64,000 bases of DNA from an uncultured bacterium (GTDB lineage: Bacteria; Bacillota; Clostridia; Lachnospirales; Lachnospiraceae), in NCBI GenBank assembly GCA_963519465.1, contig CAUQMY010000003.1, positions 69,313 to 133,312 on the forward strand, given 5' to 3'. Shown one piece after another: positions 7,525 through 21,889 of the stretch; the stretch's first letter is position 1, and each line of letters opens with the position of its first letter. Under the pieces are notes generated by a model. It did not search any database, had not been told where the DNA came from, and saw nothing but the letters and a program-made list of their open reading frames with translations. The translations under genes were made by a program, and so were the position numbers.

Positions 7525-9579
7525 CTACAGCCCAATGATTGCCAGTAGAGGTGAAATGACCATGTCAATGGCCTTGATTCCGATAAAGGGAGCTGCAATG
7601 CCGCCCAGGCCAAAGACCAGCATGTTATGGGAAAGCATTTTTTCTGAGCTCTGGAGTTTGTATTTTACCCCTTTCATCGCCAGGGGGATCAGGCAGGGAA
7701 TGATGATTGCATTGAAAATCAGAGCCGAAAGAATGGCACTGTATGAGGTGGATAACCCCATAATATTTAACATTCCCATCTGAGGGATCACTCCCATAAA
7801 CATTGCCGGAAAGATAGCGAAATACTTTGCTACGTCATTGGAAATGCTGAAGGTGGTAAGGGATCCTCTGGTAATGAGTAACTGCTTTCCGATTTCTACC
7901 ACATCAAGGATTTTCGTGGGATCAGAATCCAAATCGATCATATTGGCTGCTTCTTTTGCCGATGAGGTGCCGCTGTTCATGGCGATCCCCACATCCGCCT
8001 GAGCCAGTGCCGGAGCATCGTTGGTCCCGTCTCCGGTCATTGCTACTACTTTTCCTTTTGCCTGCTCTTCCTGAATGGCCTTTATCTTATCTTCCGGTTT
8101 GCATTCGGCAATAAAACTGTCTACCCCGGCTTCCTGGGCAATGGTAGCTGCAGTCAGCGGATTATCCCCGGTACACATGACGGTTTTGATGCCGATGGAG
8201 CGAAGCCGCTCAAACCGCTCTACAAGCCCCGGTTTTATAGTATCCTTTAAATAGATGACTCCATAAATTATGTTTCCTGCACAGACCACCAATGGAGTTC
8301 CGCCTAGCTTTGAGATCTGGCTGACCTTTGTTTCTAAATCTGCCGGTACAGTTCCGGATAAATCTAACGCATACTTTCGTATAGAATCATAAGCACCCTT
8401 ACGGATCCTCATTCCATCCGGCAGGTTTATCCCGCTCATTCGCGTCATTGCGGAAAAGGGTTCCGACTCCATTCCCGGCACCGGTTCCTCACGCTTTCCA
8501 CTTAATCGCCCTCCCAGTTCTATGATGGATTTTCCTTCGGGAGTGTCATCCCCTAAAGAACTCATGACCGCATAATGAATCAGTTCTGATTCGGTGATTC
8601 CTTCCACCGGAATAAATTTGGCAGCCATACGGTTTCCATAGGTAATGGTTCCGGTCTTATCAAGGATCATGGTATCCACATCTCCGCAGGCTTCCACTGC
8701 CTTGCCTGACATGGCTATGACATTAAACCGTGTCACACGGTCCATTCCTGCAATTCCAATGGCAGAAAGCAGACCGCCTATGGTGGTTGGGATCAGGCAG
8801 ACAGTCAATGCCACCAAAGCGGCAATGGGGAGGCGCACCCCGCTGTATATTGCAATGGGATAAAGAGTGACGATAACAATTAAAAAGATGATGGTCAGGC
8901 TTACAAGCAGCGTATTCAGTGCGATTTCATTGGGAGTTTTTTTACGGGAAGCACCTTCTACCAGAGAGATCATTTTATCCAGAAAAGATTCTCCGGGACT
9001 CGATGTGATCTCAATTTTCAGCCAGTCGCTTATGACTGTGGTCCCGCCGGTCACTGACGCAAAATCGCCGCCGCTTTCCTTTACCACCGGAGCAGATTCT
9101 CCGGTAATTGCCGATTCATCGACGGAAGCAATGCCTTCCATAACCTCTCCGTCATTTGGAATGATCTCACCAGACCGGACGATTACAACATCTCCTTTCT
9201 TCAAAAGCCCTGCGCTTATTACATTTTCCGTGTTATCCGGCCCCAACAGATGTGCCTGCATATCTTTTTGAGTCTTTCGCAGTGTCTGGGCCTGTGCTTT
9301 CCCCCTCCCCTCTGCCACTGCTTCCGCAAAGTTAGCAAATAGCAGCGTCATAAAGAGAATCACAGTAACCAGAATGTTGAAAAAACGAAGACTGTTGTCC
9401 TGATCTCCGAAAAGTCCCGGGATAAAGCAAAGCAGAAGTGTTAAAAAACATCCAGCCTCCACCACAAACATCACCGGATTTTTTATCATATACCGCGGAT
9501 TCAGTTTTAAAAATGACCCTTTGACCGCGGACTGTAATATATCCCTTGTTATAAATTTGGTTTTTGATTGTTTGCTCAT
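7525..9579 (-). CDS. kdpB: Potassium-transporting P-type ATPase subunit KdpB
   Basis: 684 aa. DKTGTIT phosphorylation motif, TGDNPLTA and [12 protein letters not shown] motifs. Confidence 0.97.
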
Positions 9580-9592
9580 AAAAAGTTCCTCC

Positions 9593-11287
9593 TCAGCTCC
9601 ACAGAATTAAATGCTCTGCAACAGGTCCCAGCACCATGACAGGAAAAAAAGTAAGTGCTGCAATGATTAAAACTACCATAAGGAGCGATACCGTAAATGT
9701 TCCTGTATCTGTTTTCAGTGTTCCTGTCGACTGGTTTACCGGATGCTTTATAAGAAGAGAACCTGATATTGCCAGAGAAATAAGGATCCCTAAATAGCGG
9801 CCGAAAAACATCACCAGTCCGGTGGTTACGTTATAAAACAGGGTATTGTCTGATAGACCTTCAAAGCCGGAACCATTATTGGCAGCAGAGGACGAAAACT
9901 CATATAGTATCTGAGTCAGTCCATGGTACCCGGGATTGGTGATGCCGGCAAGCCCGGAAGGCACAGATACTGCCAATGCAGTGAAGAGAAGTATGAGCAT
10001 GGGGTGAATGATGATCCCCAGTGCAGCAAGCTTCATTTCTTTTCCTTCAATCTTCTTTCCAAGGTATTCCGGCGTCCGTCCGATCATCAGGCCACAGATA
10101 AATACAGCAAGAATGGCATAAAGGATCATATTCATAAGCCCCACTCCCTTGCCCCCAAATACCACATTCAACATCATATTCATAAGGGCAGAGGCACCTC
10201 CCAATGGAGTTAGAGAGTCATGCATGTTGTTGACGGAACCAGTGGTAAAGGCAGTTGTAACGGTTGTAAACAGGGCAGACTGGGCGATTCCAAACCGGAC
10301 CTCTTTCCCTTCCATATTCCCCATACTCTGGTCCAGACCTGCATTTAAAAGGATTGGATTTCCATTTGATTCGGAAAGAAAGCAGATCATGAGGCCAGCC
10401 AGAAGGATAATACACATAACAGCTAATAGAGGCCTTGCCTCCCTGCCTAGCAGTCCTTCTTTTTTCCTGCTGCCTGCCATATGCCCAAAAGCAACGACAA
10501 ATGAACCTGGCATCACCATCATGGCAAGCATTTCTGCTATATTGGTAAGTACATTGGGATTTTCAAAGGGTGCCGCTGAATTTGCACCTAAAAAACCTCC
10601 TCCATTTGTACCAAGGTGTTTTATGGATTCCAGCGCGGCTATGGGACCCATAGCAAGATCCTGGAATTTTCCTTCTACTGTCTGTACTGTCACATTGGCC
10701 GACAGGTTCTGGGGAACTCCCTGAGATACCAGAAACAGTGCAAGAACCAGGGATAACGGGATCAACACCCGAGTGATGATACGAACCATATCCCGGTAAT
10801 AATTGCCTACTGTTTTGCATTTTCCGGTAATTCCTCTTAAAAATGCCATACATACTGAAAAGCCGGTAGCAGATGACGTAAACATGAGAAATATGATTAC
10901 CATCATCTGGCTGAAATAAGATAAGCCGGACTCCCCGGAGTAGTGCTGTAAATCCGTATTTGTTATAAAACTGATCACCGTGTTAAACGCCAGGGAAGGT
11001 TCCATAGCTCCGATCCTGTTGGGATTTAAAAAGGGGAAAGACGGAAGCCTTAATATAAGGTAACCGGCAATTGCCATCAGCCCATTGGTGGATAACATGG
11101 CAATGGCATACTGTTTCCAGTTCATCTCATCTTTTCCGATTCCGCAAATGCGGTAAATAACGTGATCAATGGGATTAAATACAGGATCTGCAAAGGTTTT
11201 TTTATCCAACGCGATTTGGTATAGATACTTTCCGGTCGGAAGGATAATGATAAAAAATACGATTAAAACAAGAATTATCTGTAACAT
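9593..11287 (-). CDS. kdpA: Potassium-transporting ATPase subunit KdpA
   Basis: 564-aa polytopic membrane protein. Full-length KdpA-like sequence (NGGGF, GTNGGG-type selectivity loops). Gene order is kdpF-A-B-C. Confidence 0.95.
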
Positions 11288-11308
11288 AGATTCATCACTG
11301 CCTTTCTG

Positions 11309-11386
11309 TTAAAATTTATCAGCATTCATCAGGGCATACAGCAGATACGCTGCCAATGCAAATACTACAAAACCCAAAATCATCAT
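11309..11386 (-). CDS. kdpF: KdpF small subunit (25 aa)
   Basis: MMILGFVVFALAAYLLYALMNADKF. GGAGG RBS upstream. Sits 21 nt upstream of kdpA. Too short for the ORF track. Confidence 0.75.
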   Translation of the reverse strand: MMILGFVVFALAAYLLYALMNADKF

Positions 11387-11493
11387 GATTGCACCGCCTC
11401 CCCTCCTGTTTCTTTCGTTCTCTCACAGTGTAGCACGTTCCTCATTAGGGTGGTGTAAGGGTTTCCCGGTATGAATTAACACGGCATTAAGAC

Positions 11494-11539
11494 AAAAAAA
11501 CACCACCTCACTCTCTTATAGAAGAAAGCGAAGATGGTG
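11494..11539 (-). terminator. Intrinsic terminator after kdpE
   Basis: CACCATCTTCGC...GAGTGAGGTGGTG stem followed by TTTTTTT on the minus strand. It separates kdpDE from kdpFABC. Confidence 0.7.
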
Positions 11540-11543
11540 TCAG

Positions 11544-12260
11544 TTACATGGATTTTCCGTCCTCCGAAACCCGGAGCATACGGTACCCAATGCCAATATG
11601 GGTTTGAATATATTTTAAATCGGAATCCGATTTTTCTATCTTTTTCCGAAGAGTCGCCATGAATACTCGCAATGCCGGTATATCGCTGGAGTAATTTCCC
11701 CAGATTTCATGGAGAATAAAATTGTGAGTAAGTACCTTTCCCACATGTTTTGCCAAAAGACAAAGAAGCTTGTATTCAATAGGGGTTAAGTGAATTTCTT
11801 CCCCATTCAGCCATGCACATCCGGCGGAATAATCAATTTTTAAGTTTCCATTTATAAAGACCGTGGAATCCTTTATAGGCTTATCCTGGTCATACCGAAT
11901 CCGGCGGAGACTTACCCGGAGCCGCGCCAGCAATTCGTCTACATAGAACGGCTTGGTCAAATAATCATCTGCACCTGCATCAAGAGCATCTACTTTATCC
12001 TGATTCTCGCTGCGGGCACTGACTACAATAATGGGAACATTGGACCATTCCCTGATCTTTTTAATGATATCAACGCCTTCCATATCCGGCAGACCCAGAT
12101 CCAGAATTATGATATCCGGCTGGCTGGTGGCTGCTTCCAAAAGAGAAGCGGCTCCTGTTTCTGCTGTATGATAAAGATATCCCTGTGTTTCAAGAGTCGT
12201 GGTGATGAGCTTGCGGATGGCTTTGTCATCTTCCACAACCAGAATGAGCGGTTTATTCAT
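11544..12260 (-). CDS. kdpE: OmpR-family response regulator KdpE
   Basis: 238 aa. Receiver plus winged-helix domains. Overlaps the kdpD stop. Lies immediately upstream of kdpFABC. Confidence 0.9.
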   Translation of the reverse strand: MNKPLILVVEDDKAIRKLITTTLETQGYLYHTAETGAASLLEAATSQPDIIILDLGLPDMEGVDIIKKIREWSNVPIIVVSARSENQDKVDALDAGADDYLTKPFYVDELLARLRVSLRRIRYDQDKPIKDSTVFINGNLKIDYSAGCAWLNGEEIHLTPIEYKLLCLLAKHVGKVLTHNFILHEIWGNYSSDIPALRVFMATLRKKIEKSDSDLKYIQTHIGIGYRMLRVSEDGKSM

Positions 12261-14946
12261 GCAGATTCACCTCCTCTGCCTGCAAAGTAAAACCAAGTAT
12301 GGTTCCCGTGGGAACGTTGTTTTTTACATAGATTCTTCCACCGTGGGCGTGGATAATGGATTTGCAAAGGGATAGCCCCAGACCGATTCCTCGCCGTCCA
12401 TCTCCCCGTATATTATCAGCCGTATAAAACATATCAAACAGCTTTTCTTTTGCTTCATCGGATATACCGGGACCATTGTCCGCAATCTCTACACAGGCTG
12501 ATTCCCCTTCCTGTTTTGCTGTAATGACAATGGTAGAACCTTTTGGTGTGTATTTAATGGCATTGTCAATGATATTTACTATTACCTGCATGATCAGCTG
12601 GGAATCCATCTTTGCCATCAGAAGTTCGTCACTTACTGCTGTCTGGATTACATGATCCACATGGTTCCGGTTGATATGGAGCAGTGCTTCTGAAATCACT
12701 TCTGAGATCAAATCTGGCTGCATGGTCAGGTTTAGAGCCCCATTGTCGATCTTTGTTATGGAAAGTAAATTTTCCACCAGATTAATCAGCCACATGGAAT
12801 CATCGTAAATATCCGTATAGAGACCTCTTTTTTGCTCCTCGCTTATAACGGCACCATTGGACATCAGTATTCCCGCATTGCCGGATATGCTGGTAAGAGG
12901 TGTTCGCAGATCATGGGAAATTCCACGCAGCAGATTTGCACGGAGTTTTTCCTGCTGCATCTGCATGGAGATCTCTTTCTGGGTTCTATTGAGTTCTTCT
13001 TTTTCCAAAGCCAGGGAACATTCTCCTAAAATGGCGATGACAATGCTTTTTTCAAAGGCCTCTAAGGGACTTTCTCCTTCCATGGAAACCCCTACTACGG
13101 AAAGAACTTCTCCTCCGCTGCGGACTGCTAGATATAAGCATTTTGCTCCGGAGAGCGTACTTGTGGTTGCTCCTGCACGTTTGTTATTTTTAAAGACCCA
13201 TTCCGCTACCGCCCGCTCTTCGATTCCAAGATACTGCTCTCCTCGTTCTCCTTCTTCTTTCCTATAAAATACCTCTGGCTTTTCTAAGCCATTCTGATCC
13301 GAGGGATAGATGATGATCGTCCGGTCCAATAACTTGATCATCTGATAAGCAGTCTCCTTTAATATATCCTCCCGGTCCTTTGCCTGCTGCAATTTCTGAC
13401 TGGTTTCCAAAAGCACTTCTGTCCGGTAGGCTTTTTCTGATGACTGTCTTGCCTGCTCCTTGATCTGCCTGGTTAAAGTACTGGTAATCAGGGCAGCCGT
13501 CAGCATGATTAAAAACGTAACCGGATAGCTTGGAAAAAACGCCTGAAAGGAGAAGCGGGGTTCTGTAAAGAAATAATTAAAGATCAGTACACTCAGTATG
13601 GAGGAAACCACACTGTATAATCTTCCTTTTGTAAATACTGCATTGACCTGGACGCCTAAGATATAGACGGTCATGATATTGGCAACACTAAAATCCAGGA
13701 TATCAAATAAAAATCCGATCGCCGTGCAGATTACCAGCAACGCTAAGGATTTAAACGTATCAGCAAGTGAAAGATCCTCAGGCTTTCCAAGTTTCAAAGC
13801 ATAGCTGGAAAAAGCAGACTGCGTATCCGGGATGATATAAATATCCGTGGCCGGAGCCAATTCAGTCAGGGTGTCCATGTAGTTCCTTTTAAACCAGCGT
13901 TTCGTCCGCAGAGAACGTCCCATAACGATTTTGGATACCCGGCTCACTTTCGCATATTCTGCGATCTGCACCGGAACATCTTCCCCGTATACGGTGGAAA
14001 TCTGCGCACCTAACTGCTCTGCGAGTCTTAAGTTCTCCATAAGAGCTTCCTTATTCTTTTCACTCAGCTCTCTTGCTGCCGGAGTTTCCACAAACAAGGC
14101 GGTAAATGTCCCTTTAAAGGCCTCTGCCATCCGTGCGGCTGTCCGTATTACTTTGGCATTGGATGGGGCGGAGGACAAACATACCAGAATATGTTCATTG
14201 GAATACCCGGTGTTGTTATTTTCTGGCTCATTTCGTGCAGCGATCCGGTTAACCTTGTCTGCCGTACGGCGCAGAGCAATTTCACGGAGAGAAACCAGAT
14301 TTTCCTTGGTAAAGAAGTTTGTTAATGCTTTCTGTGCCTGGCTTTCCTTATATATTTTCCCTTTATTTAAACGGTCGATCAAATCATCCGGTTCAATATC
14401 CACCAGTTCAATCTGGTCCGCCTCGTCAAATACACTGTCTGGTATCCTCTCACGCACATAAATACCGGTAAAGGATTCCACAATGTCATTCAGGCTTTCT
14501 ATGTGCTGGACATTAACCGTGGTATAGACATCGATTCCTGCTATAAGCAGCTCCTCCACATCCTGATACCTTTTCTTATGCCGGCAGCCGGCGGCATTGG
14601 AATGGGCAAATTCATCCACAAGGATCAGATCCGGGTGTCTCTGAAGCGCAGAATCCAAATCAAATTCACTTAGCTGAATGCCTTTATAGGAAAGCACCAA
14701 TGGAGAAAGTATTTCCAGTCCTTCCATAAGTGCCATGGTTTCTGGTCGGACGTGGGGCTCTATGTATCCGGCAACCACGTCAATGCCGCTAACTTTCGCT
14801 TCATGAGCGTCCTGCAGCATGGCACATGTCTTGCCGACACCTGCTGCATATCCAAAATAGATCCTGAGCGTTCCCCGTTTCTGCCCGGACGGCAAAGTTT
14901 TTAGCTGTTCTAACAGACATAAAGAATCCGTCTGATGGATTGCCAC
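12253..14946 (-). CDS. kdpD: Sensor histidine kinase KdpD
   Basis: 897 aa. N-terminal KdpD domain with P-loop (GYAAGVGKT), Usp-like region, TM block, GAF-like region, H-box (ISHDLRTPLT) and HATPase. Confidence 0.95.
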   Translation of the reverse strand: MAIHQTDSLCLLEQLKTLPSGQKRGTLRIYFGYAAGVGKTCAMLQDAHEAKVSGIDVVAGYIEPHVRPETMALMEGLEILSPLVLSYKGIQLSEFDLDSALQRHPDLILVDEFAHSNAAGCRHKKRYQDVEELLIAGIDVYTTVNVQHIESLNDIVESFTGIYVRERIPDSVFDEADQIELVDIEPDDLIDRLNKGKIYKESQAQKALTNFFTKENLVSLREIALRRTADKVNRIAARNEPENNNTGYSNEHILVCLSSAPSNAKVIRTAARMAEAFKGTFTALFVETPAARELSEKNKEALMENLRLAEQLGAQISTVYGEDVPVQIAEYAKVSRVSKIVMGRSLRTKRWFKRNYMDTLTELAPATDIYIIPDTQSAFSSYALKLGKPEDLSLADTFKSLALLVICTAIGFLFDILDFSVANIMTVYILGVQVNAVFTKGRLYSVVSSILSVLIFNYFFTEPRFSFQAFFPSYPVTFLIMLTAALITSTLTRQIKEQARQSSEKAYRTEVLLETSQKLQQAKDREDILKETAYQMIKLLDRTIIIYPSDQNGLEKPEVFYRKEEGERGEQYLGIEERAVAEWVFKNNKRAGATTSTLSGAKCLYLAVRSGGEVLSVVGVSMEGESPLEAFEKSIVIAILGECSLALEKEELNRTQKEISMQMQQEKLRANLLRGISHDLRTPLTSISGNAGILMSNGAVISEEQKRGLYTDIYDDSMWLINLVENLLSITKIDNGALNLTMQPDLISEVISEALLHINRNHVDHVIQTAVSDELLMAKMDSQLIMQVIVNIIDNAIKYTPKGSTIVITAKQEGESACVEIADNGPGISDEAKEKLFDMFYTADNIRGDGRRGIGLGLSLCKSIIHAHGGRIYVKNNVPTGTILGFTLQAEEVNLHE

Positions 14947-16824: not shown

Positions 16825-17118
16825 TCCGGAGGGCTTAACTGGATCACCTTTTGTACCGGACTTGGCAGCGACAAAGCAAAACGCATCGAAAACTGCACCC
16901 GCGCCAGTGTGTGCTTCAACACAGATGGAGCCTATAACATCACTCTAGTTGGAAGAATTGAGATTGTAACAGATCCTTATGTAAAACAGGAAATGTGGTA
17001 TTCCGGTTTGGAGCATCATTTCAGCGGTCCTGATGCTCCGGGATACTGTGTTCTGCGTTTTCACACAGAACGGTACAATCTTTGGATCGATTATAAAGAA
17101 ACCCAGGGTATCTTATAA
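16825..17118 (+). pseudogene. 5'-truncated pyridoxamine 5'-phosphate oxidase (PNPOx/general stress protein 26)-family gene remnant
   Basis: The frame is open from 16825, right after the preceding gene. It reads ..WITFCTGLGSDKAKRIENCTRASVCFNTDGAYNITLVGRIEIVTDPYVKQEMW.., which corresponds to only the C-terminal two-thirds of such proteins. There is no start codon or RBS at the 5' end. Confidence 0.6.
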
Positions 17119-17439
17119 GGGATCAATACGGATCACCCCTCCGCATAAGCAGGATAAGACGCTGGTACTATAAAGAGCCGGTTCCCCATTAATTTTATGG
17201 TCCTTATTCTCTATCAGCCATGGTATTAAAACCACTGGAACACACGGCTGAGGAGGGGTCATCCGCTGGCATGTACCAAAACAGGTATAATTGACCCCCG
17301 GCTTGTAATCCATGACAGATGCCTGTTTTCTGTCCCCAACGACCGCACCATGACTGGTGGGAACCTTTAAACAGCACCCACAGCTGCCCATGGAACATTT
17401 TAATGTAACCCCTTCAACCACCTCAAACTTCTCACTCAT
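17113..17439 (-). CDS. DUF4280 (PAAR-like) domain protein, orphan
   Basis: 108 aa. GVTLKCSMGSC...LKVPTSHGAVVGDRKQASVMDY.PGVNYTCFGTCQ....PPQPCVPV....W......KINGEPAL...SVLSCLCGGVIRI matches the DUF4280 Cys/Gly pattern. RBS GAGAGAGG. Confidence 0.75.
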   Translation of the reverse strand: MSEKFEVVEGVTLKCSMGSCGCCLKVPTSHGAVVGDRKQASVMDYKPGVNYTCFGTCQRMTPPQPCVPVVLIPWLIENKDHKINGEPALYSTSVLSCLCGGVIRIDPL

Positions 17440-17612
17440 TTGTAATACCTCTCTCTGAATAAATTATATCATTGAAAATCCAAAAAATGCCGCAGGCACC
17501 AATTAAGCCTGCCTTTTCCTTTCATATTCCTTCACATTTTTGTAAAAGGCATGATTGAAAAAAGCAGACTTTTAGGGAGCATTGGTTTTCCGTAAGGAGC
17601 CCGCATTGGATT

Positions 17613-17680
17613 TTGATTACAATATATACGAATTTTTCAAAAAAAGGAGCATCTTGTAAGAATTAACGGTTTGTATGTAA
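17613..17680 (-). promoter_or_regulatory. Conserved 68-bp upstream element, copy B (box1 TTACATACAAACCG, 34-nt spacer, box2 TTCGTATATATTGTAATCAA)
   Basis: Box1 matches copy A (4154..4221) at 13/14 and box2 at 19/20, with identical 34-nt spacing, by my count. Lies 173 nt upstream of the DUF4280 ATG. Confidence 0.6.
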
Positions 17681-17714
17681 TAATAAGTACAAATTTTTCT
17701 AATAGCAGTTGATC

Positions 17715-18218
17715 TTAATCCGCTTTTAATACCTTTACGATCTCTCCCACATAGCATTGGTGGTAGTCTTTTTCCGGATAATTCTTACCATCCAGGGATT
17801 CATCTGTAAATCCGGCAGGGTCAATACTCTGCTTATAGAGTTTCCGGCAGATGAGCACAAGCTTTGCCTCTGAAAAATAGGGAGCATCTCCATCAAAGAA
17901 GGGGATAAGCCCGGTTTCTTCTTCCTTATTCACATCACGGCCGGAATGAGAACCACAGTAGGAAAGTGCTGCCCGGTACTTCTCATCAAAAAAATTAAGC
18001 GCATAGTACTCTTCCCTGTCTGCAAATTCCAGTGTATACCTTTGAGGCCGTAATACGATCGTGGATACGTTCTTCCCCCACATCACTCCGATTCCTCCCC
18101 AGCTGGCGGTCATCATATTATAACTGTTTTCATTTCCGGCAGAAATGAGCATCCATTCCTTTCCTATTAATGTAACAGGATTTACCGGCACCTCTAAAAG
18201 ATCTACTTCTCTTAACAT
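17715..18218 (-). CDS. Flavin reductase-like FMN-binding domain protein
   Basis: MLREVDLLEVPVNPVTLIGKEWMLISAG..YNMMTASWGGIGVMW is typical of this family. GGAGG RBS precedes this internal ATG (track ORF extends to 18287). Confidence 0.75.
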   Translation of the reverse strand: MLREVDLLEVPVNPVTLIGKEWMLISAGNENSYNMMTASWGGIGVMWGKNVSTIVLRPQRYTLEFADREEYYALNFFDEKYRAALSYCGSHSGRDVNKEEETGLIPFFDGDAPYFSEAKLVLICRKLYKQSIDPAGFTDESLDGKNYPEKDYHQCYVGEIVKVLKAD

Positions 18219-18410: not shown

Positions 18411-18875
18411 ATGTCTGCAAACAGAAGAAAGCTATTGGCCTTTATCATACTTCCTCTGGCTGTTGGGGCGATCGCCGGATTTCTTACAAGAGACAGCATG
18501 ACCATGTACAATTCCTTGAACCGGCCGTCCATATCACCTCCTGGCTGGGTATTTCCATTAGTCTGGACCATTTTATACATACTTATGGGAATAAGTTCCT
18601 ATCTGATTGCCTCCTCTCCATCTCCCAAGAAACAGGAAGCCCTGATGCTATATGCAGTCCAGCTGTTCCTTAATTTTATCTGGAGTCTGGTATTCTTTGG
18701 ACTGAATAATTATTTACTGGCATTCCTTGTTCTCCTGCTTTTGTGGTATGTTATCCTCAAAATGATCCGGTCTTTCTTCCAGATCGATCCTGCTGCTGCA
18801 CTACTCCAAATCCCCTATCTCTTATGGGTCACCTTTGCCGGATTCTTAAACCTGGCCATTGCATTCTTGAATTAA
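18411..18875 (+). CDS. tspO: TspO/MBR tryptophan-rich sensory protein
   Basis: 154 aa, five TM helices. LNRPSISPPGWVFPLVWTILYILMG and the LLQIPYLLWVTFAGFLN signature. Confidence 0.85.
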   Translation: MSANRRKLLAFIILPLAVGAIAGFLTRDSMTMYNSLNRPSISPPGWVFPLVWTILYILMGISSYLIASSPSPKKQEALMLYAVQLFLNFIWSLVFFGLNNYLLAFLVLLLLWYVILKMIRSFFQIDPAAALLQIPYLLWVTFAGFLNLAIAFLN

Positions 18876-19071: not shown

Positions 19072-20466
19072 TTAAATCAATATATATTTAAGAACAAATA
19101 AGAAAGCCATAACATACATAAGAATACTGATTTTCTTATCTTTTCTCTTTCCTGTAACAACATTGATGATTACATAGGAAATTACACCCATGGAAATACC
19201 TTCAGAAATGCTGTACATAAACGGCATAGCTATGATGGTGATGTAAGCTGGTATTGCCTCTGTAAAATCATTAAAATTGATCTTAACAATGGAGGTCAGC
19301 ATTAAGAAACCTACCACTACCAGGGCTGGTGCCGTCGCAAAGGACGGAATTGCCAAAAAGATCGGAGATAAAAACAGGGACAGACCAAACAAAATAGCTG
19401 CAACTACTGCTGTAAGACCTGTTCTTCCGCCTTCTGCCACGCCTGCTGCACTTTCAACAAAAGCAACAACTGTGGAAGTTCCAAATACTGCACCTGCGGT
19501 TGTTGCAATGGCATCTGATAACAGAGAACCTTTGACATTAGGAAGTTTTCCGTCTTTATCAAGCATGTCTGCCTTTGATGCAACTCCAATGAGTGTTCCA
19601 AGGGTATCAAATAAATCTACGAACAGGAATGCAAACATGACCACCAAAAAGTCCAGGGAAAATGCTCTGGAAAAATCCATTTTCATAAAAGTAGGTGCCA
19701 TGCTTTTAATTCCGAATCCGGAACTTAAATCTGGGAATACGCTGTACATGCCCATCTCCGGATTTGGCTGATACAAACCAGTCGCCTGGCAGATCATTCC
19801 AAGAATCCAGGTGATTAAGATTCCCCATAACATATTGCCTTTTACATTCTTAACTACAAGTACGGCTGTAACGAGAATGCCGATAATTGCCAGTAAAACA
19901 GTGATTCCAACCGTATGGAATGTTCCATCTGTCACTGAACCTTTAAAAGAATAAAAGGAAACAAGAGTGGAGCTATCCACAACGATTTTTGCATTCTGCA
20001 TTCCGATAAATGCAATAAACAGACCGATTCCTACAGAAACAGCATGCTTTAAGTTAATCGGAATGGCATTAAAGATTCCTTCTCTGACACTTGTAAGGGA
20101 AAGAACGATAAAGATGATACCTTCTAAAAATACAGCCGCCAAAGCCATCTGCCAGGTATAACCCATTTTTAATACTACCGTGTATGCAAAAAATGCATTC
20201 AGTCCCATACCTGGAGCCAGTACAAACGGATAGTTTGCAAACCACGCGATCAATAGGGTTCCAAGTAAAGATGCCAGCGCTGTGGCTGTAAATACAGCCC
20301 CGGTGTCCATGCCTGTTGCGCCTAAAATGCTGGGGTTTACCGCCAGAATATAAGCAGTTGTCATGAACGTTGTTATACCGGCTACCACCTCAGTCTTTAC
20401 ATCTGTTCGATTCTGTGATAAGTGGAATGTTTTATCTAGAAAACTTCCCCTCTCTTTTGTTGCCAT
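19072..20466 (-). CDS. NCS2-family purine permease (adenine/guanine/hypoxanthine, PbuG/PbuO-like)
   Basis: 464-aa polytopic membrane protein. AzgA-type N-terminus (FHLSQNRTDVKTEVVAGITTFMTTAYILAVNP). Co-oriented downstream of guanine deaminase. Confidence 0.85.
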   Translation of the reverse strand: MATKERGSFLDKTFHLSQNRTDVKTEVVAGITTFMTTAYILAVNPSILGATGMDTGAVFTATALASLLGTLLIAWFANYPFVLAPGMGLNAFFAYTVVLKMGYTWQMALAAVFLEGIIFIVLSLTSVREGIFNAIPINLKHAVSVGIGLFIAFIGMQNAKIVVDSSTLVSFYSFKGSVTDGTFHTVGITVLLAIIGILVTAVLVVKNVKGNMLWGILITWILGMICQATGLYQPNPEMGMYSVFPDLSSGFGIKSMAPTFMKMDFSRAFSLDFLVVMFAFLFVDLFDTLGTLIGVASKADMLDKDGKLPNVKGSLLSDAIATTAGAVFGTSTVVAFVESAAGVAEGGRTGLTAVVAAILFGLSLFLSPIFLAIPSFATAPALVVVGFLMLTSIVKINFNDFTEAIPAYITIIAMPFMYSISEGISMGVISYVIINVVTGKRKDKKISILMYVMAFLFVLKYILI

Positions 20467-20498: not shown

Positions 20499-21779
20499 CT
20501 AAAATATCCGGCTTCCTTCTGTAAATTTTCCTTTGATATGCCTGTCATCTGACAGGTAAATAAAACGCTCCAGCCTTTCTTTTAAGGTAAGGGGCTGGGG
20601 ATGAGGCAGACTGCTGTCATCCAGAATCAGAGCATCAAATTCGTAGCCTTTTAAAAAGCTTCCAACCTTTCCAAAGAACGATCCGCCGCCTAACGTACCC
20701 ATATAGAATGCCTCTTCTATCGTAACCGGCTTTAAGCTTTCATCCAAAAGGCGCCATCTTAATTTCGATACAGAAATGGCATCCGCCATGGCACGGAAGA
20801 TGGATTCCCCGCTGCCTCCTGCCACATCGGTTCCAAGTCCGATATTCATCTTCTGCTCCAGATATGTCCTTACCGGAGCGATCCCGGAAGATAAATTCGT
20901 ATTGGACTGAGGGCAATGGGCGATAAAGACTCCACGTTCCTTCATCAGTGCAATCTCCTCTTTCGGTGAATAAACACAGTGAGCCATTACCGTTTTCGCA
21001 TTTCCGCCAAACAATCCGAACTGGTCGTATGCATCTCCATAGAATTTGGACGCAGGACATAACCCTTTGACCCACTCAATCTCACTCTGGTTTTCCGATA
21101 AGTGGGACTGCACAGGAATCCGGTATTTTTTCTGCATCCTTGAAAGCCGATCCATCAGTTCATCCGTACAGGATGGAATAAATCTAGGAGTCAGAATGGG
21201 ACTGACATTTTCATATTTAGACTTCACATGATCTAACCATGCGGCCGTGTCCCGTTCAGACTCTGCTGCTCCATGTTCACAGTAATATTCCGGAGAGTTC
21301 CGGTCCATATTCACCTTTCCCACCATGGTCTTTAAGCCGGTTTCCTCCATCAGATCCATTAAAACTTCTGTGGCCGGCCTGTGTATGGTGGCAAAAATGC
21401 AGGCTCTCGTAGTAGCGCTCTTTCTCATTGTATCAGCAAAAATCTGATAGGCTTTATTTGCATATTCTAGATCTTTGTACTTGGCTTCCTCTGGAAATGT
21501 ATTGGTATTCAGCCAGTCCAAAAGCTCCAAATCCATATTAAGCCCCCGGAACGAAAACTGAGGCGCATGGATATGAAGGTCAATAAGACCGGGAATGATC
21601 ATTCTATCTCCCCAATCTGTAAGAGGAAGATCCAAAAACTGCTCTGGCAGTTCTTTAAATACCCCTTCCGACTTTCCTTCCAAACAAACCAGATACCCCT
21701 GTTCCACGGTCCGTAACAGATTCATATCCTCACTGTAGCAGATGTTTCCCTTTAAGACAAAATTTTTATCACCAGTCAT
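20499..21779 (-). CDS. guaD: Guanine deaminase (amidohydrolase superfamily)
   Basis: PGLIDLHIHAPQ metal-binding motif and HLSEN motif. Length and overall pattern fit guanine deaminase. GGAGG RBS precedes the ATG at 21779. Confidence 0.8.
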   Translation of the reverse strand: MTGDKNFVLKGNICYSEDMNLLRTVEQGYLVCLEGKSEGVFKELPEQFLDLPLTDWGDRMIIPGLIDLHIHAPQFSFRGLNMDLELLDWLNTNTFPEEAKYKDLEYANKAYQIFADTMRKSATTRACIFATIHRPATEVLMDLMEETGLKTMVGKVNMDRNSPEYYCEHGAAESERDTAAWLDHVKSKYENVSPILTPRFIPSCTDELMDRLSRMQKKYRIPVQSHLSENQSEIEWVKGLCPASKFYGDAYDQFGLFGGNAKTVMAHCVYSPKEEIALMKERGVFIAHCPQSNTNLSSGIAPVRTYLEQKMNIGLGTDVAGGSGESIFRAMADAISVSKLRWRLLDESLKPVTIEEAFYMGTLGGGSFFGKVGSFLKGYEFDALILDDSSLPHPQPLTLKERLERFIYLSDDRHIKGKFTEGSRIF

Positions 21780-21889
21780 AGAACCTCCTGTCCCGCATAC
21801 CATAAAATAAAACACGGCAGTTCACATTGCAGCGTTCCTTAAGTCCTACGCAACAAAAAACCACCGTTCTCTCTATCTCCTCTGCGCAC

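Follow-up and report, generated by a model that had tools for sequence, protein, structure and literature searches.

A stand-alone PAAR-like gene from a Lachnospiraceae bacterium is probably linked to an Hcp/VgrG-type cluster by a shared LytTR-type promoter

We analyzed a 64,000-nt stretch of DNA, referred to below as the window, from an uncultured bacterium of the Lachnospiraceae (contig CAUQMY010000003.1, positions 69,313 to 133,312), focusing on a short gene at positions 17113..17439 of the minus strand and on the sequences upstream of it. From its ATG start, this open reading frame (ORF) encodes a single-domain protein of 108 aa that matches the Pfam profile of the DUF4280 family (PF14107) over profile positions 1-104 of 109 (E=5.1e-21, 75.7 bits for a cut-off of 26.3), which bears out the PAAR-like assignment made in a preliminary description of the sequence. 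Its closest homologues, 64-86% identical, all come from Lacrimispora and related Lachnospiraceae, and in an alignment with six of them the cysteines C15, C57, C66, C97, and C99 are invariant. Four highly conserved cysteines, a putative metal site, are the hallmark of the family (PMC5014421); their spacing is 42/9/31 in the 108-aa protein and 41/17/30 in IglG, the spacings having been compared without a residue-by-residue alignment. The ratio of nonsynonymous to synonymous substitution rates (dN/dS) lies between 0.06 and 0.24 across lineages (~0.1), and the gene is under strong purifying selection. A Shine-Dalgarno sequence, GAGAGAGG, can be read 8 nt 5' of the ATG (17448..17455, minus strand), and its GAGG is invariant in an alignment of seven upstream regions.

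Farther upstream lies one of the two copies of a 68-nt direct repeat (17613-17680 and 4154-4221, 74% identity), which we call the shared element. The copy before the DUF4280 gene, designated promoter P1 (17621..17680, minus strand), consists of two direct repeats 21 bp apart (TTACAT at 17680-17675 and TTACAA at 17659-17654), followed 27 nt later by a -10 hexamer, TATATT (17626-17621), with no good -35; transcription from it would start near 17614. The second copy (4162..4221, minus strand; repeats at 4221-4216 and 4200-4195, -10 box at 4167-4162) lies about 40 nt 5' of the start codon of a gene for a VWA-domain protein and is the predicted promoter of the operon that this gene opens.

The upstream regions of the DUF4280 and VWA genes from seven DUF4280 lineages were aligned, and only three conserved blocks were found, at fixed spacing: [T/A]TACAT, then after 15 nt [T/A]TAC(A/G)(T/A), then after a further 27 nt TATATT(G). 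Allowing one mismatch, the pattern WTACDT-N15-WTACRW-N27-TATAWT occurs exactly twice in the window, where shuffled sequences predict 0.01 occurrences. In 1.79 Mb of related loci it has 61 exact matches, all of them intergenic and most preceding a DUF4280 or a VWA gene, while a few, with no target gene assigned, are found upstream of the VWA gene at a distance of 0.4-0.9 kb. The spacing (21 and 33 nt) is invariant in the 61 instances and the bases in between vary. In every recovered lineage with a readable upstream region, the same element precedes DUF4280. From this distribution we conclude that the shared element is a putative regulon promoter/operator, neither an RNA gene nor the scar of a mobile element.

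A 68-nt repeat kept at 74% identity in two distant places could also be read as the remnant of a mobile or repetitive element without any regulatory role, but we find this scarcely conceivable. Only two copies exist in the window, both on the coding strand and ~40-180 nt upstream of start codons; the conserved positions belong to the two hexamer repeats and the -10 box, whose spacing is fixed, and the remainder drifts; the leader that follows the element is not repeated in 1.8 Mb of related loci; and terminal inverted repeats and a transposase are absent. As a separate observation, in the L. xylanisolvens/amygdalina clade (L028-L035 and L041, ~6100-7500) a gene for a 417-aa lipoprotein replaces the kinase gene after the LytTR regulator gene described below and is preceded by a further operator copy, so the regulon differs between clades.

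The operon downstream of the second copy lies at the left edge of the window, on the minus strand, behind a two-component system recognized by its Pfam domains (4338..6364), which comprises a LytTR response regulator (5642-6364) and a multi-pass sensor kinase with a HATPase_c_5 domain (4338-5657). The first operon gene (2101..4122) encodes a 673-aa protein whose sequence features are a signal peptide, a VWA domain, a transmembrane helix, and a cytoplasmic tail. The second (1..1991) encodes 663 aa within the window and, judging from the homologues in relatives, 722 aa when complete. In ~80 genomes the order of the operon is VWA, 722-aa, 142-aa, 141-aa, DnaJ-domain, two FHA, PP2C, PP2C-like/TPR, and 826-aa proteins, with identities of 50-97% over ~80 species of Lachnospiraceae and relatives and one Streptobacillus.

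Among the products of this operon, the 141/142-aa proteins are candidate tube proteins: 12 of the 13 examined match the Pfam family TssD/Hcp (PF17642; best E=1.6e-5), and their only PDB match is Hcp1 (6bdc, E=0.67), while an hhalign comparison with an E. coli Hcp was negative. In L020, the closest relative (97%), the operon ends with a 200-aa protein and then a 492-aa VgrG-like protein (Phage_base_V at 28.7 bits for a cut-off of 23.8; Phage_GPD and DUF2345 match more weakly). The 722-aa protein is very highly conserved, with identities of 72-97% across Lachnospiraceae and of 49% in a Streptobacillus, and it has 2,522 scored homologues that fall into 574 clusters at 50% identity. Like the protein itself, distant members of its family have no Pfam match, and a tblastn search of plasmids with it gave zero matches. 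Its AlphaFold model (predicted local distance difference test, pLDDT, 35) is unusable. A supposed likeness of its N-terminus to TssB was discarded after hhalign against TssB/TssC of E. coli Sakai returned a probability of 0.3%.

Some further features of the operon proteins were recorded. GenBank names the 722-aa homologues "transcriptional regulator" or hypothetical; no DNA-binding domain is detectable in the protein, the homologues P0030-P0125 included, and the former name is probably a propagated annotation artefact. The consensus of the 826-aa protein (L020, 17469-19949) contains DFGSSNT and DCGGGTTD, which by eye resemble the phosphate-binding loops of ASKHA (actin/Hsp70-type) proteins; one of seven members has a weak match to Pfam Actin, and there are zero PDB matches. 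The DnaJ-domain protein is encoded in the same operon as the 826-aa protein. In L041, the VWA gene is seemingly in two pieces (213 + 479 aa), and the 722-aa gene, here of 701 aa, is altered at its C-terminus.

The gene neighborhoods of relatives place the DUF4280 gene beside this cluster. In L003-6, L010-14, and L017-19, only 1.3-2.6 kb separate it from the LytTR regulator gene with which a regulator-kinase-VWA-722-aa cluster begins, and the distance is comparable in L023-26 and L088. A check of the co-occurrence of DUF4280 with homologues of the 722-aa protein was thus positive among the closest relatives, and the connection with the left-edge operon that the preliminary description had suspected from the shared element is supported by the element and the synteny in relatives. 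This synteny persists even where the DUF4280 proteins of the lineages have diverged by up to 36%. In Clostridium sp. Marseille-P2415 (L007), a 72%-identical DUF4280 gene stands behind the same element and 20 nt upstream of a VgrG gene, whose 466-aa product matches Phage_GPD (47.4 bits), Phage_base_V, and DUF2345; the pair shares a contig with the main cluster and lies upstream of it. A shortened Phage_GPD (VgrG-like) gene follows DUF4280 in strain 54-53. In L040, L060, and L065, the DUF4280 domain is fused to larger proteins, the fused gene lying directly upstream of a VgrG-like gene in L040 and at the distal cluster end in L060 and L065.

In the window, the two promoters carrying the shared element are 13.5 kb apart, and between them lie a kdp operon with kdpDE, a WYL regulator gene, an AlkZ-related gene, and a PNPOx remnant. 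DUF4280 looks orphaned because these genes intervene and a VgrG gene is absent from the window; in functional terms the label "orphan" is not supported by the sequence comparisons and appears misleading. The kdp genes form a complete kdpABC and kdpDE potassium-transport locus (6742-14946, minus strand) that separates DUF4280 from the LytTR cluster. No kdp genes lie between the two in L003-6, L010-14, and L017-19, and L020 has only kdpDE there.

The regulator gene itself provides a candidate for the protein that acts on the element. Of the 22 loci that contain a LytTR orthologue of at least 49% identity, 19 have the VWA-proximal element; of the 41 loci lacking such an orthologue, 6 have it. LytTR regulators of the AgrA type bind a pair of direct repeats immediately upstream of weak promoters (PMC4227749), and we read the element as a LytTR-type promoter because its two-repeat layout without a -35 matches such targets. 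The LytTR regulator is therefore probably the activator that binds both copies, a candidate assignment. The likeness to AgrA-type regulons (agr P2/P3, and the ComE and PlnC/D promoters) extends to the distance of about two helical turns between the repeats and the poor -35, to the presence of the same operator before several transcription units, to the position of the regulator and kinase genes beside one target, and to a long structured RNA at the beginning of one target. Unlike in agr, where the proximal repeat is centered near -60, it is centered here near -42, and autoinducer-peptide genes were not identified.

Upstream of the LytTR regulator gene, a conserved block beginning GTGCAAATTTTGGCACTCAAAGTGTATAATTTTAGCACTTGGGTTGAAAAATGTCG... 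(6489-6719, minus strand) holds two GCAC-type direct repeats ~21 bp apart and a promoter-like site, TTGAAA-N17-TATGCT. It can also be read as a 42-aa ORF (MQILALKVYNFSTWVEKCRISLYAEK...); a 35-aa gene is called at its position in L017, and in L020 it is in frame with the regulator ORF. The block could be the regulator's own operator or the gene of a small, possibly signalling, peptide.

Taken with the conserved element, the synteny, and the VgrG pairing in a relative, these results indicate that the gene is probably a stand-alone PAAR-like tip gene tied by the shared LytTR-type promoter to an Hcp/VgrG-type cluster. The DUF4280 protein would be a PAAR-like cone that caps a VgrG-type spike, and the apparatus it serves would be the one encoded at the left edge, with its VWA protein, 722-aa protein, two Hcp-like proteins, DnaJ protein, two FHA proteins, PP2C, and in some lineages a VgrG-like protein. 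The LytTR regulator would bind the repeats and activate both promoters; with both under the same regulator, the tip protein and the machine would be switched on together. A wider version of this explanation is possible, and we offer it only tentatively: DUF4280 may be the spike tip of an apparatus for injection or secretion, based on Hcp and VgrG and so far uncharacterised, in single-membrane Clostridia, which would then be the translocation system on whose existence a paper of 2021 speculated (PMC8651086). The core of the apparatus would comprise the VWA protein, the 722-aa protein (possibly a new sheath or scaffold), the two Hcp-like proteins, a protein with a J domain, and phospho-signalling by FHA and PP2C proteins, and in Lacrimispora the whole would be fired by a LytTR, possibly quorum-sensing, switch.

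Several observations weigh against this explanation. The gene does stand alone locally, as had been described: tblastn found no VgrG-like or Hcp-like gene in the 64-kb window, in which no search was aimed at LXG, WXG100, or EssC, and the left edge of the window falls inside the 722-aa gene, exact-sequence look-ups of the VWA and 722-aa proteins having matched no record. The match of the 141/142-aa proteins to TssD is below threshold (14.9 bits for a cut-off of 25.8, in the one member with a reported score), and a VgrG-like gene closing the operon is found only in L020, L021, L040, L046, and L074, most loci ending earlier. For the 722-aa protein, there is no sequence match in Pfam, NCBIfam, PHROG, or the PDB. 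Among the cluster proteins scanned, which reached at most 10 kb downstream of the 722-aa gene, homologues of the sheath, the baseplate (TssE/F/G/K), and the membrane complex (TssJ/L/M) were undetected, and those tested for the sheath proteins TssB/TssC gave zero matches to the Pfam and NCBIfam families. The DUF4280 protein has zero sequence matches in the PDB, and its AlphaFold2 model, built on a seven-sequence alignment, reaches a pLDDT of only 50.2, too poor to confirm the fold for which the conical beta-structure of PAAR (4JIV/4JIW) served as reference. On the regulatory side, the association of the element with the LytTR gene is confounded by phylogeny, and six loci have the element and no adjacent LytTR gene. 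Finally, the TTACAT repeats, as candidate sites, differ by eye from the classical 9-mer consensus of LytTR regulators (AgrA and ComE boxes).

The isolation of the gene could instead mean that it is a true orphan, that is, a partnerless and decaying leftover of an adaptor or toxin module from a polymorphic-toxin or type VII secretion system (T7SS). The neighboring PNPOx gene has decayed, the window contains no adjoining fused toxin domain, immunity gene, or VgrG gene, and the downstream VgrG-like gene of strain 54-53 is shortened. We nevertheless judge this very improbable, as the gene is under strong purifying selection, its cysteines are invariant, all lineages conserve its promoter and its Shine-Dalgarno sequence, and the cluster synteny is kept despite the divergence of the protein. 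The preliminary suggestion of an orphan adaptor from a polymorphic-toxin or T7SS-type system was not supported, the partners of DUF4280 being VgrG-like and Hcp-like proteins, and the link with the Hcp/VgrG-type cluster remains the explanation we prefer.

Between the end of the TATATT box (17621) and the ATG lie 181 nt, whose hairpin, U-run, and TATAAT hexamer are located where the preliminary description had placed them. The terminator-like region (17482..17512, minus strand), found by inspection and by a terminator scan, consists of a hairpin of GCAGGC (17512-17507) and GCCUGC (GCCTGC in the DNA, 17497-17492) with -11.7 kcal/mol, an overlapping GGUGCC/GGCAUU hairpin, and a U6 run (17487-17482) that begins 4 nt past the GCAGGC/GCCUGC stem; the scan flags 17500-17486 plus the T-run. 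Closer to the gene, TATAAT (17468-17463) is preceded by TG and thus forms a candidate extended -10 box, TGATATAAT, 23 nt 5' of the ATG (P2; 17463..17471, minus strand). In 8 of 11 lineages, a box of the type TGnTAnAAT (TGATAGAAA in L014) is found 23-24 nt 5' of the ATG; it is absent in L007, L015, and L100, of which L007 and L015 have a VgrG-like gene directly after DUF4280. The motif alone is not rare, with 6 occurrences in the window for 2.7 expected.

The leader as a whole is predicted to be structured (17468..17617, minus strand). In its minimum-free-energy fold, an outer stem of 17617-17596 with 17503-17468 encloses a long hairpin (17571-17505), and none of 200 shuffled sequences folded as well (z=-3.71). 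The z-scores by lineage are -3.7 for the window, -4.1 for JR3, -3.4 for L017, -0.2 for L007, -1.7 for L010, and -1.6 for L014; a similar nested fold is found in the L005 lineage (z=-4.12). Within this fold, GCAGGC pairs upstream, in the hairpin 17571-17505, and GCCUGC pairs with the 5' end, so the GCAGGC/GCCUGC hairpin is an alternative and not the default structure. One compensatory change, from A-U to G-C, was seen by eye between the leaders of the window and L003.

Almost nothing of the leader sequence is conserved except the first few bases and the Shine-Dalgarno sequence, and its length varies from 76-79 nt (L010, L014, L017, L023, L025, and L026) through 149 nt (JR3 and P2415) and the 181 nt of the window to 215-221 nt (L100 and L015); L100 was the one locus added by a metagenome scan for DUF4280 leaders. 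Neither the whole window searched against Rfam 15 nor a permissive scan of 17000-18000 yielded a family for the leader, the former giving no leader match at the gathering threshold and the latter only unrelated eukaryotic families with E>2 at best. Plasmid DNA contained zero matches to it, and searches of sequencing runs for leader transcripts turned up nothing but metagenomes of DNA or, in RNA-seq contigs from insect guts, chance matches of 30 nt. We also considered the leader as a repeat or miniature inverted-repeat transposable element and discarded this, blastn against the 1.8 Mb of related loci having given orthologous matches only. The evolutionary lability of the leader argues against a conserved small RNA or riboswitch. 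By uniform criteria, a terminator-like hairpin with a U-run is nevertheless present in 5 of 11 leaders (window, L007, L100, L017, and L023), compared with 6.9% of random 150-nt windows, and is missing in the JR3, L010, and L014 lineages; given its recurrence, some form of attenuation or insulation may exist. We picture the 181-nt leader as a lineage-specific structured spacer that probably lowers or insulates read-through from the activated promoter, while the conserved extended -10 box TGATATAAT beside the ribosome-binding site could give basal, regulator-independent expression where the gene stands alone.

The same features might be arranged as a regulated attenuator, in which most transcripts from P1 would stop near 17482 until a signal favoring the long hairpin 17571-17505 permits read-through into DUF4280. 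The segments GCGGGC, GUCUGC, GCAGGC, and GCCUGC can pair either as 1:4 and 2:3 or as 3:4, the fold of the leader beats shuffled sequences in three lineages, and the hairpin recurs well above its background. Moreover, L007 and L100, where DUF4280 heads a VgrG operon, have a terminator in the leader and no proximal -10 box, so their expression must rely on read-through. However, no sensor was found, the part of the leader large enough for one has no conserved sequence, the leader varies in length from 76 to 221 nt, and it lacks an Rfam family match. JR3, the closest lineage with a different sequence, has only a U4 run and fails the terminator criteria, and in the window the GCAGGC/GCCUGC hairpin is absent from the minimum-free-energy fold and separated from its U-run by 4 nt. 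A leader peptide was also tried and dropped: the 24-codon ORF (MRAPYGKPML...) that overlaps stem segment 1 lacks a Shine-Dalgarno sequence and, in L003, is not conserved. We consider such an attenuator rather unlikely; it refines the link with the cluster and does not exclude it.

Less likely than the regulated attenuator, and in our view improbable, is an independent short RNA of ~130 nt (~17614 to 17482) resembling RNAIII, the product of the AgrA-driven P3 promoter, with DUF4280 transcribed solely from the TGATATAAT promoter. The succession of a promoter, a structured RNA, a U-run, and a second promoter fits this idea, as does the proximal TGnTAnAAT box in 8 of 11 lineages, and a LytTR regulator that drives a regulatory RNA has a precedent in AgrA and RNAIII; the P3 promoter is covered by PMC4227749. 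Yet neither the sequence nor the length of such an RNA is conserved even between 86%-identical lineages, the short-leader lineages leave just ~45 nt between the two -10 boxes, and L007, L015, and L100 have no second promoter although the element stands directly before DUF4280. The position of the element relative to the ORF is constant in every lineage, and the protein gene would therefore be the regulated target, as the shared-promoter explanation has it.

Small, domain-only PAAR-like proteins with a PF14107 domain and conserved cysteines are known from type VI secretion systems (T6SSs), namely IglG of the Francisella T6SSii and the DUF4280 proteins of the Bacteroidota T6SSiii (PMC5014421, PMC5349215). 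The present system resembles them further in the pairing with a VgrG-like protein in relatives and in tube proteins that match the TssD type of Hcp. It differs in its Gram-positive host, in the lack of the N-terminal helical extension of IglG, in that no recognisable sheath, baseplate, or membrane complex was found in the scanned cluster proteins, and in the detachment of DUF4280 from the cluster, with its own copy of the cluster promoter. This last arrangement recalls the auxiliary vgrG-PAAR modules of proteobacterial T6SSs, where a spike or tip gene also lies outside the main cluster yet is co-regulated; unlike those modules, the locus has no effector, immunity, or adaptor gene and is reduced to the tip gene alone.

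The nearest precedent in Gram-positive bacteria is a remark from 2021 that DUF4280 of the PAAR_H2 type occurs beside Phage_GPD in Firmicutes without known T6SS genes or genes of extracellular contractile injection systems (eCIS), possibly as part of a translocation system of an unknown, phage-like kind (PMC8651086). The pairing (L007 and L015), the phylum, and the absence of T6SS/eCIS core genes are the same here. The VgrG partner, unlike in those pairs, is not adjacent in the window, and the tie to a specific conserved operon and a shared promoter is described nowhere in the accessible part of that paper. What is new here, relative to that part, is the attachment of a specific conserved operon and regulator to the remark on DUF4280-Phage_GPD pairs. 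Apart from this remark, a literature search found no description of an Hcp/VgrG cluster in Firmicutes, most subscription journals being outside its coverage, so that absence is not implied.

Injection machines of the contractile or phage-like type, for which PAAR-like tips serve as markers, are considered a speciality of Gram-negative bacteria, and the main interest of the locus is the uncharacterised Hcp/VgrG-containing cluster in a Gram-positive bacterium. Here a shared promoter and synteny connect such a tip gene, in a Gram-positive Lacrimispora, with a large operon in which Hcp-like and VgrG-like genes occur; the homologues of its key 722-aa protein, which has no annotated domain, number in the thousands. 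Should this link prove real, a translocation system of abundant gut and soil anaerobes would have a definite set of genes open to testing, and the LytTR regulator with its operator would be a simple handle to switch the system on. The question of the leader is narrower; an answer would show how a detached component stays in step with its machine.

The remaining features of the locus surround the DUF4280 gene. Convergent with it, on the plus strand, is a PNPOx-like pseudogene (16825..17118), identified by tblastn with an intact 159-aa orthologue and by weak PNPOx-like matches. It is 5'-truncated, since only residues 50-146 of the orthologue survive, and the gene is intact in L010 and L017. Its remnant ORF (16909..17118) overlaps the stop region of DUF4280 by 6 nt, in agreement with the overlap first reported for this decayed gene. 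On the other side, the DUF4280 promoter is flanked by a flavin-reductase-like gene (17715-18218, minus strand) and a TspO/MBR gene (18411-18875, plus strand); the L010 lineage has no flavin-reductase gene, and there the operator comes directly after the TspO gene. Farther along, the minus strand carries a purine riboswitch aptamer (RF00167; 21922-22017, 49.7 bits for a gathering score of 37), downstream of which are genes for an amidohydrolase (20499-21815) and a xanthine/uracil permease (19072-20466).

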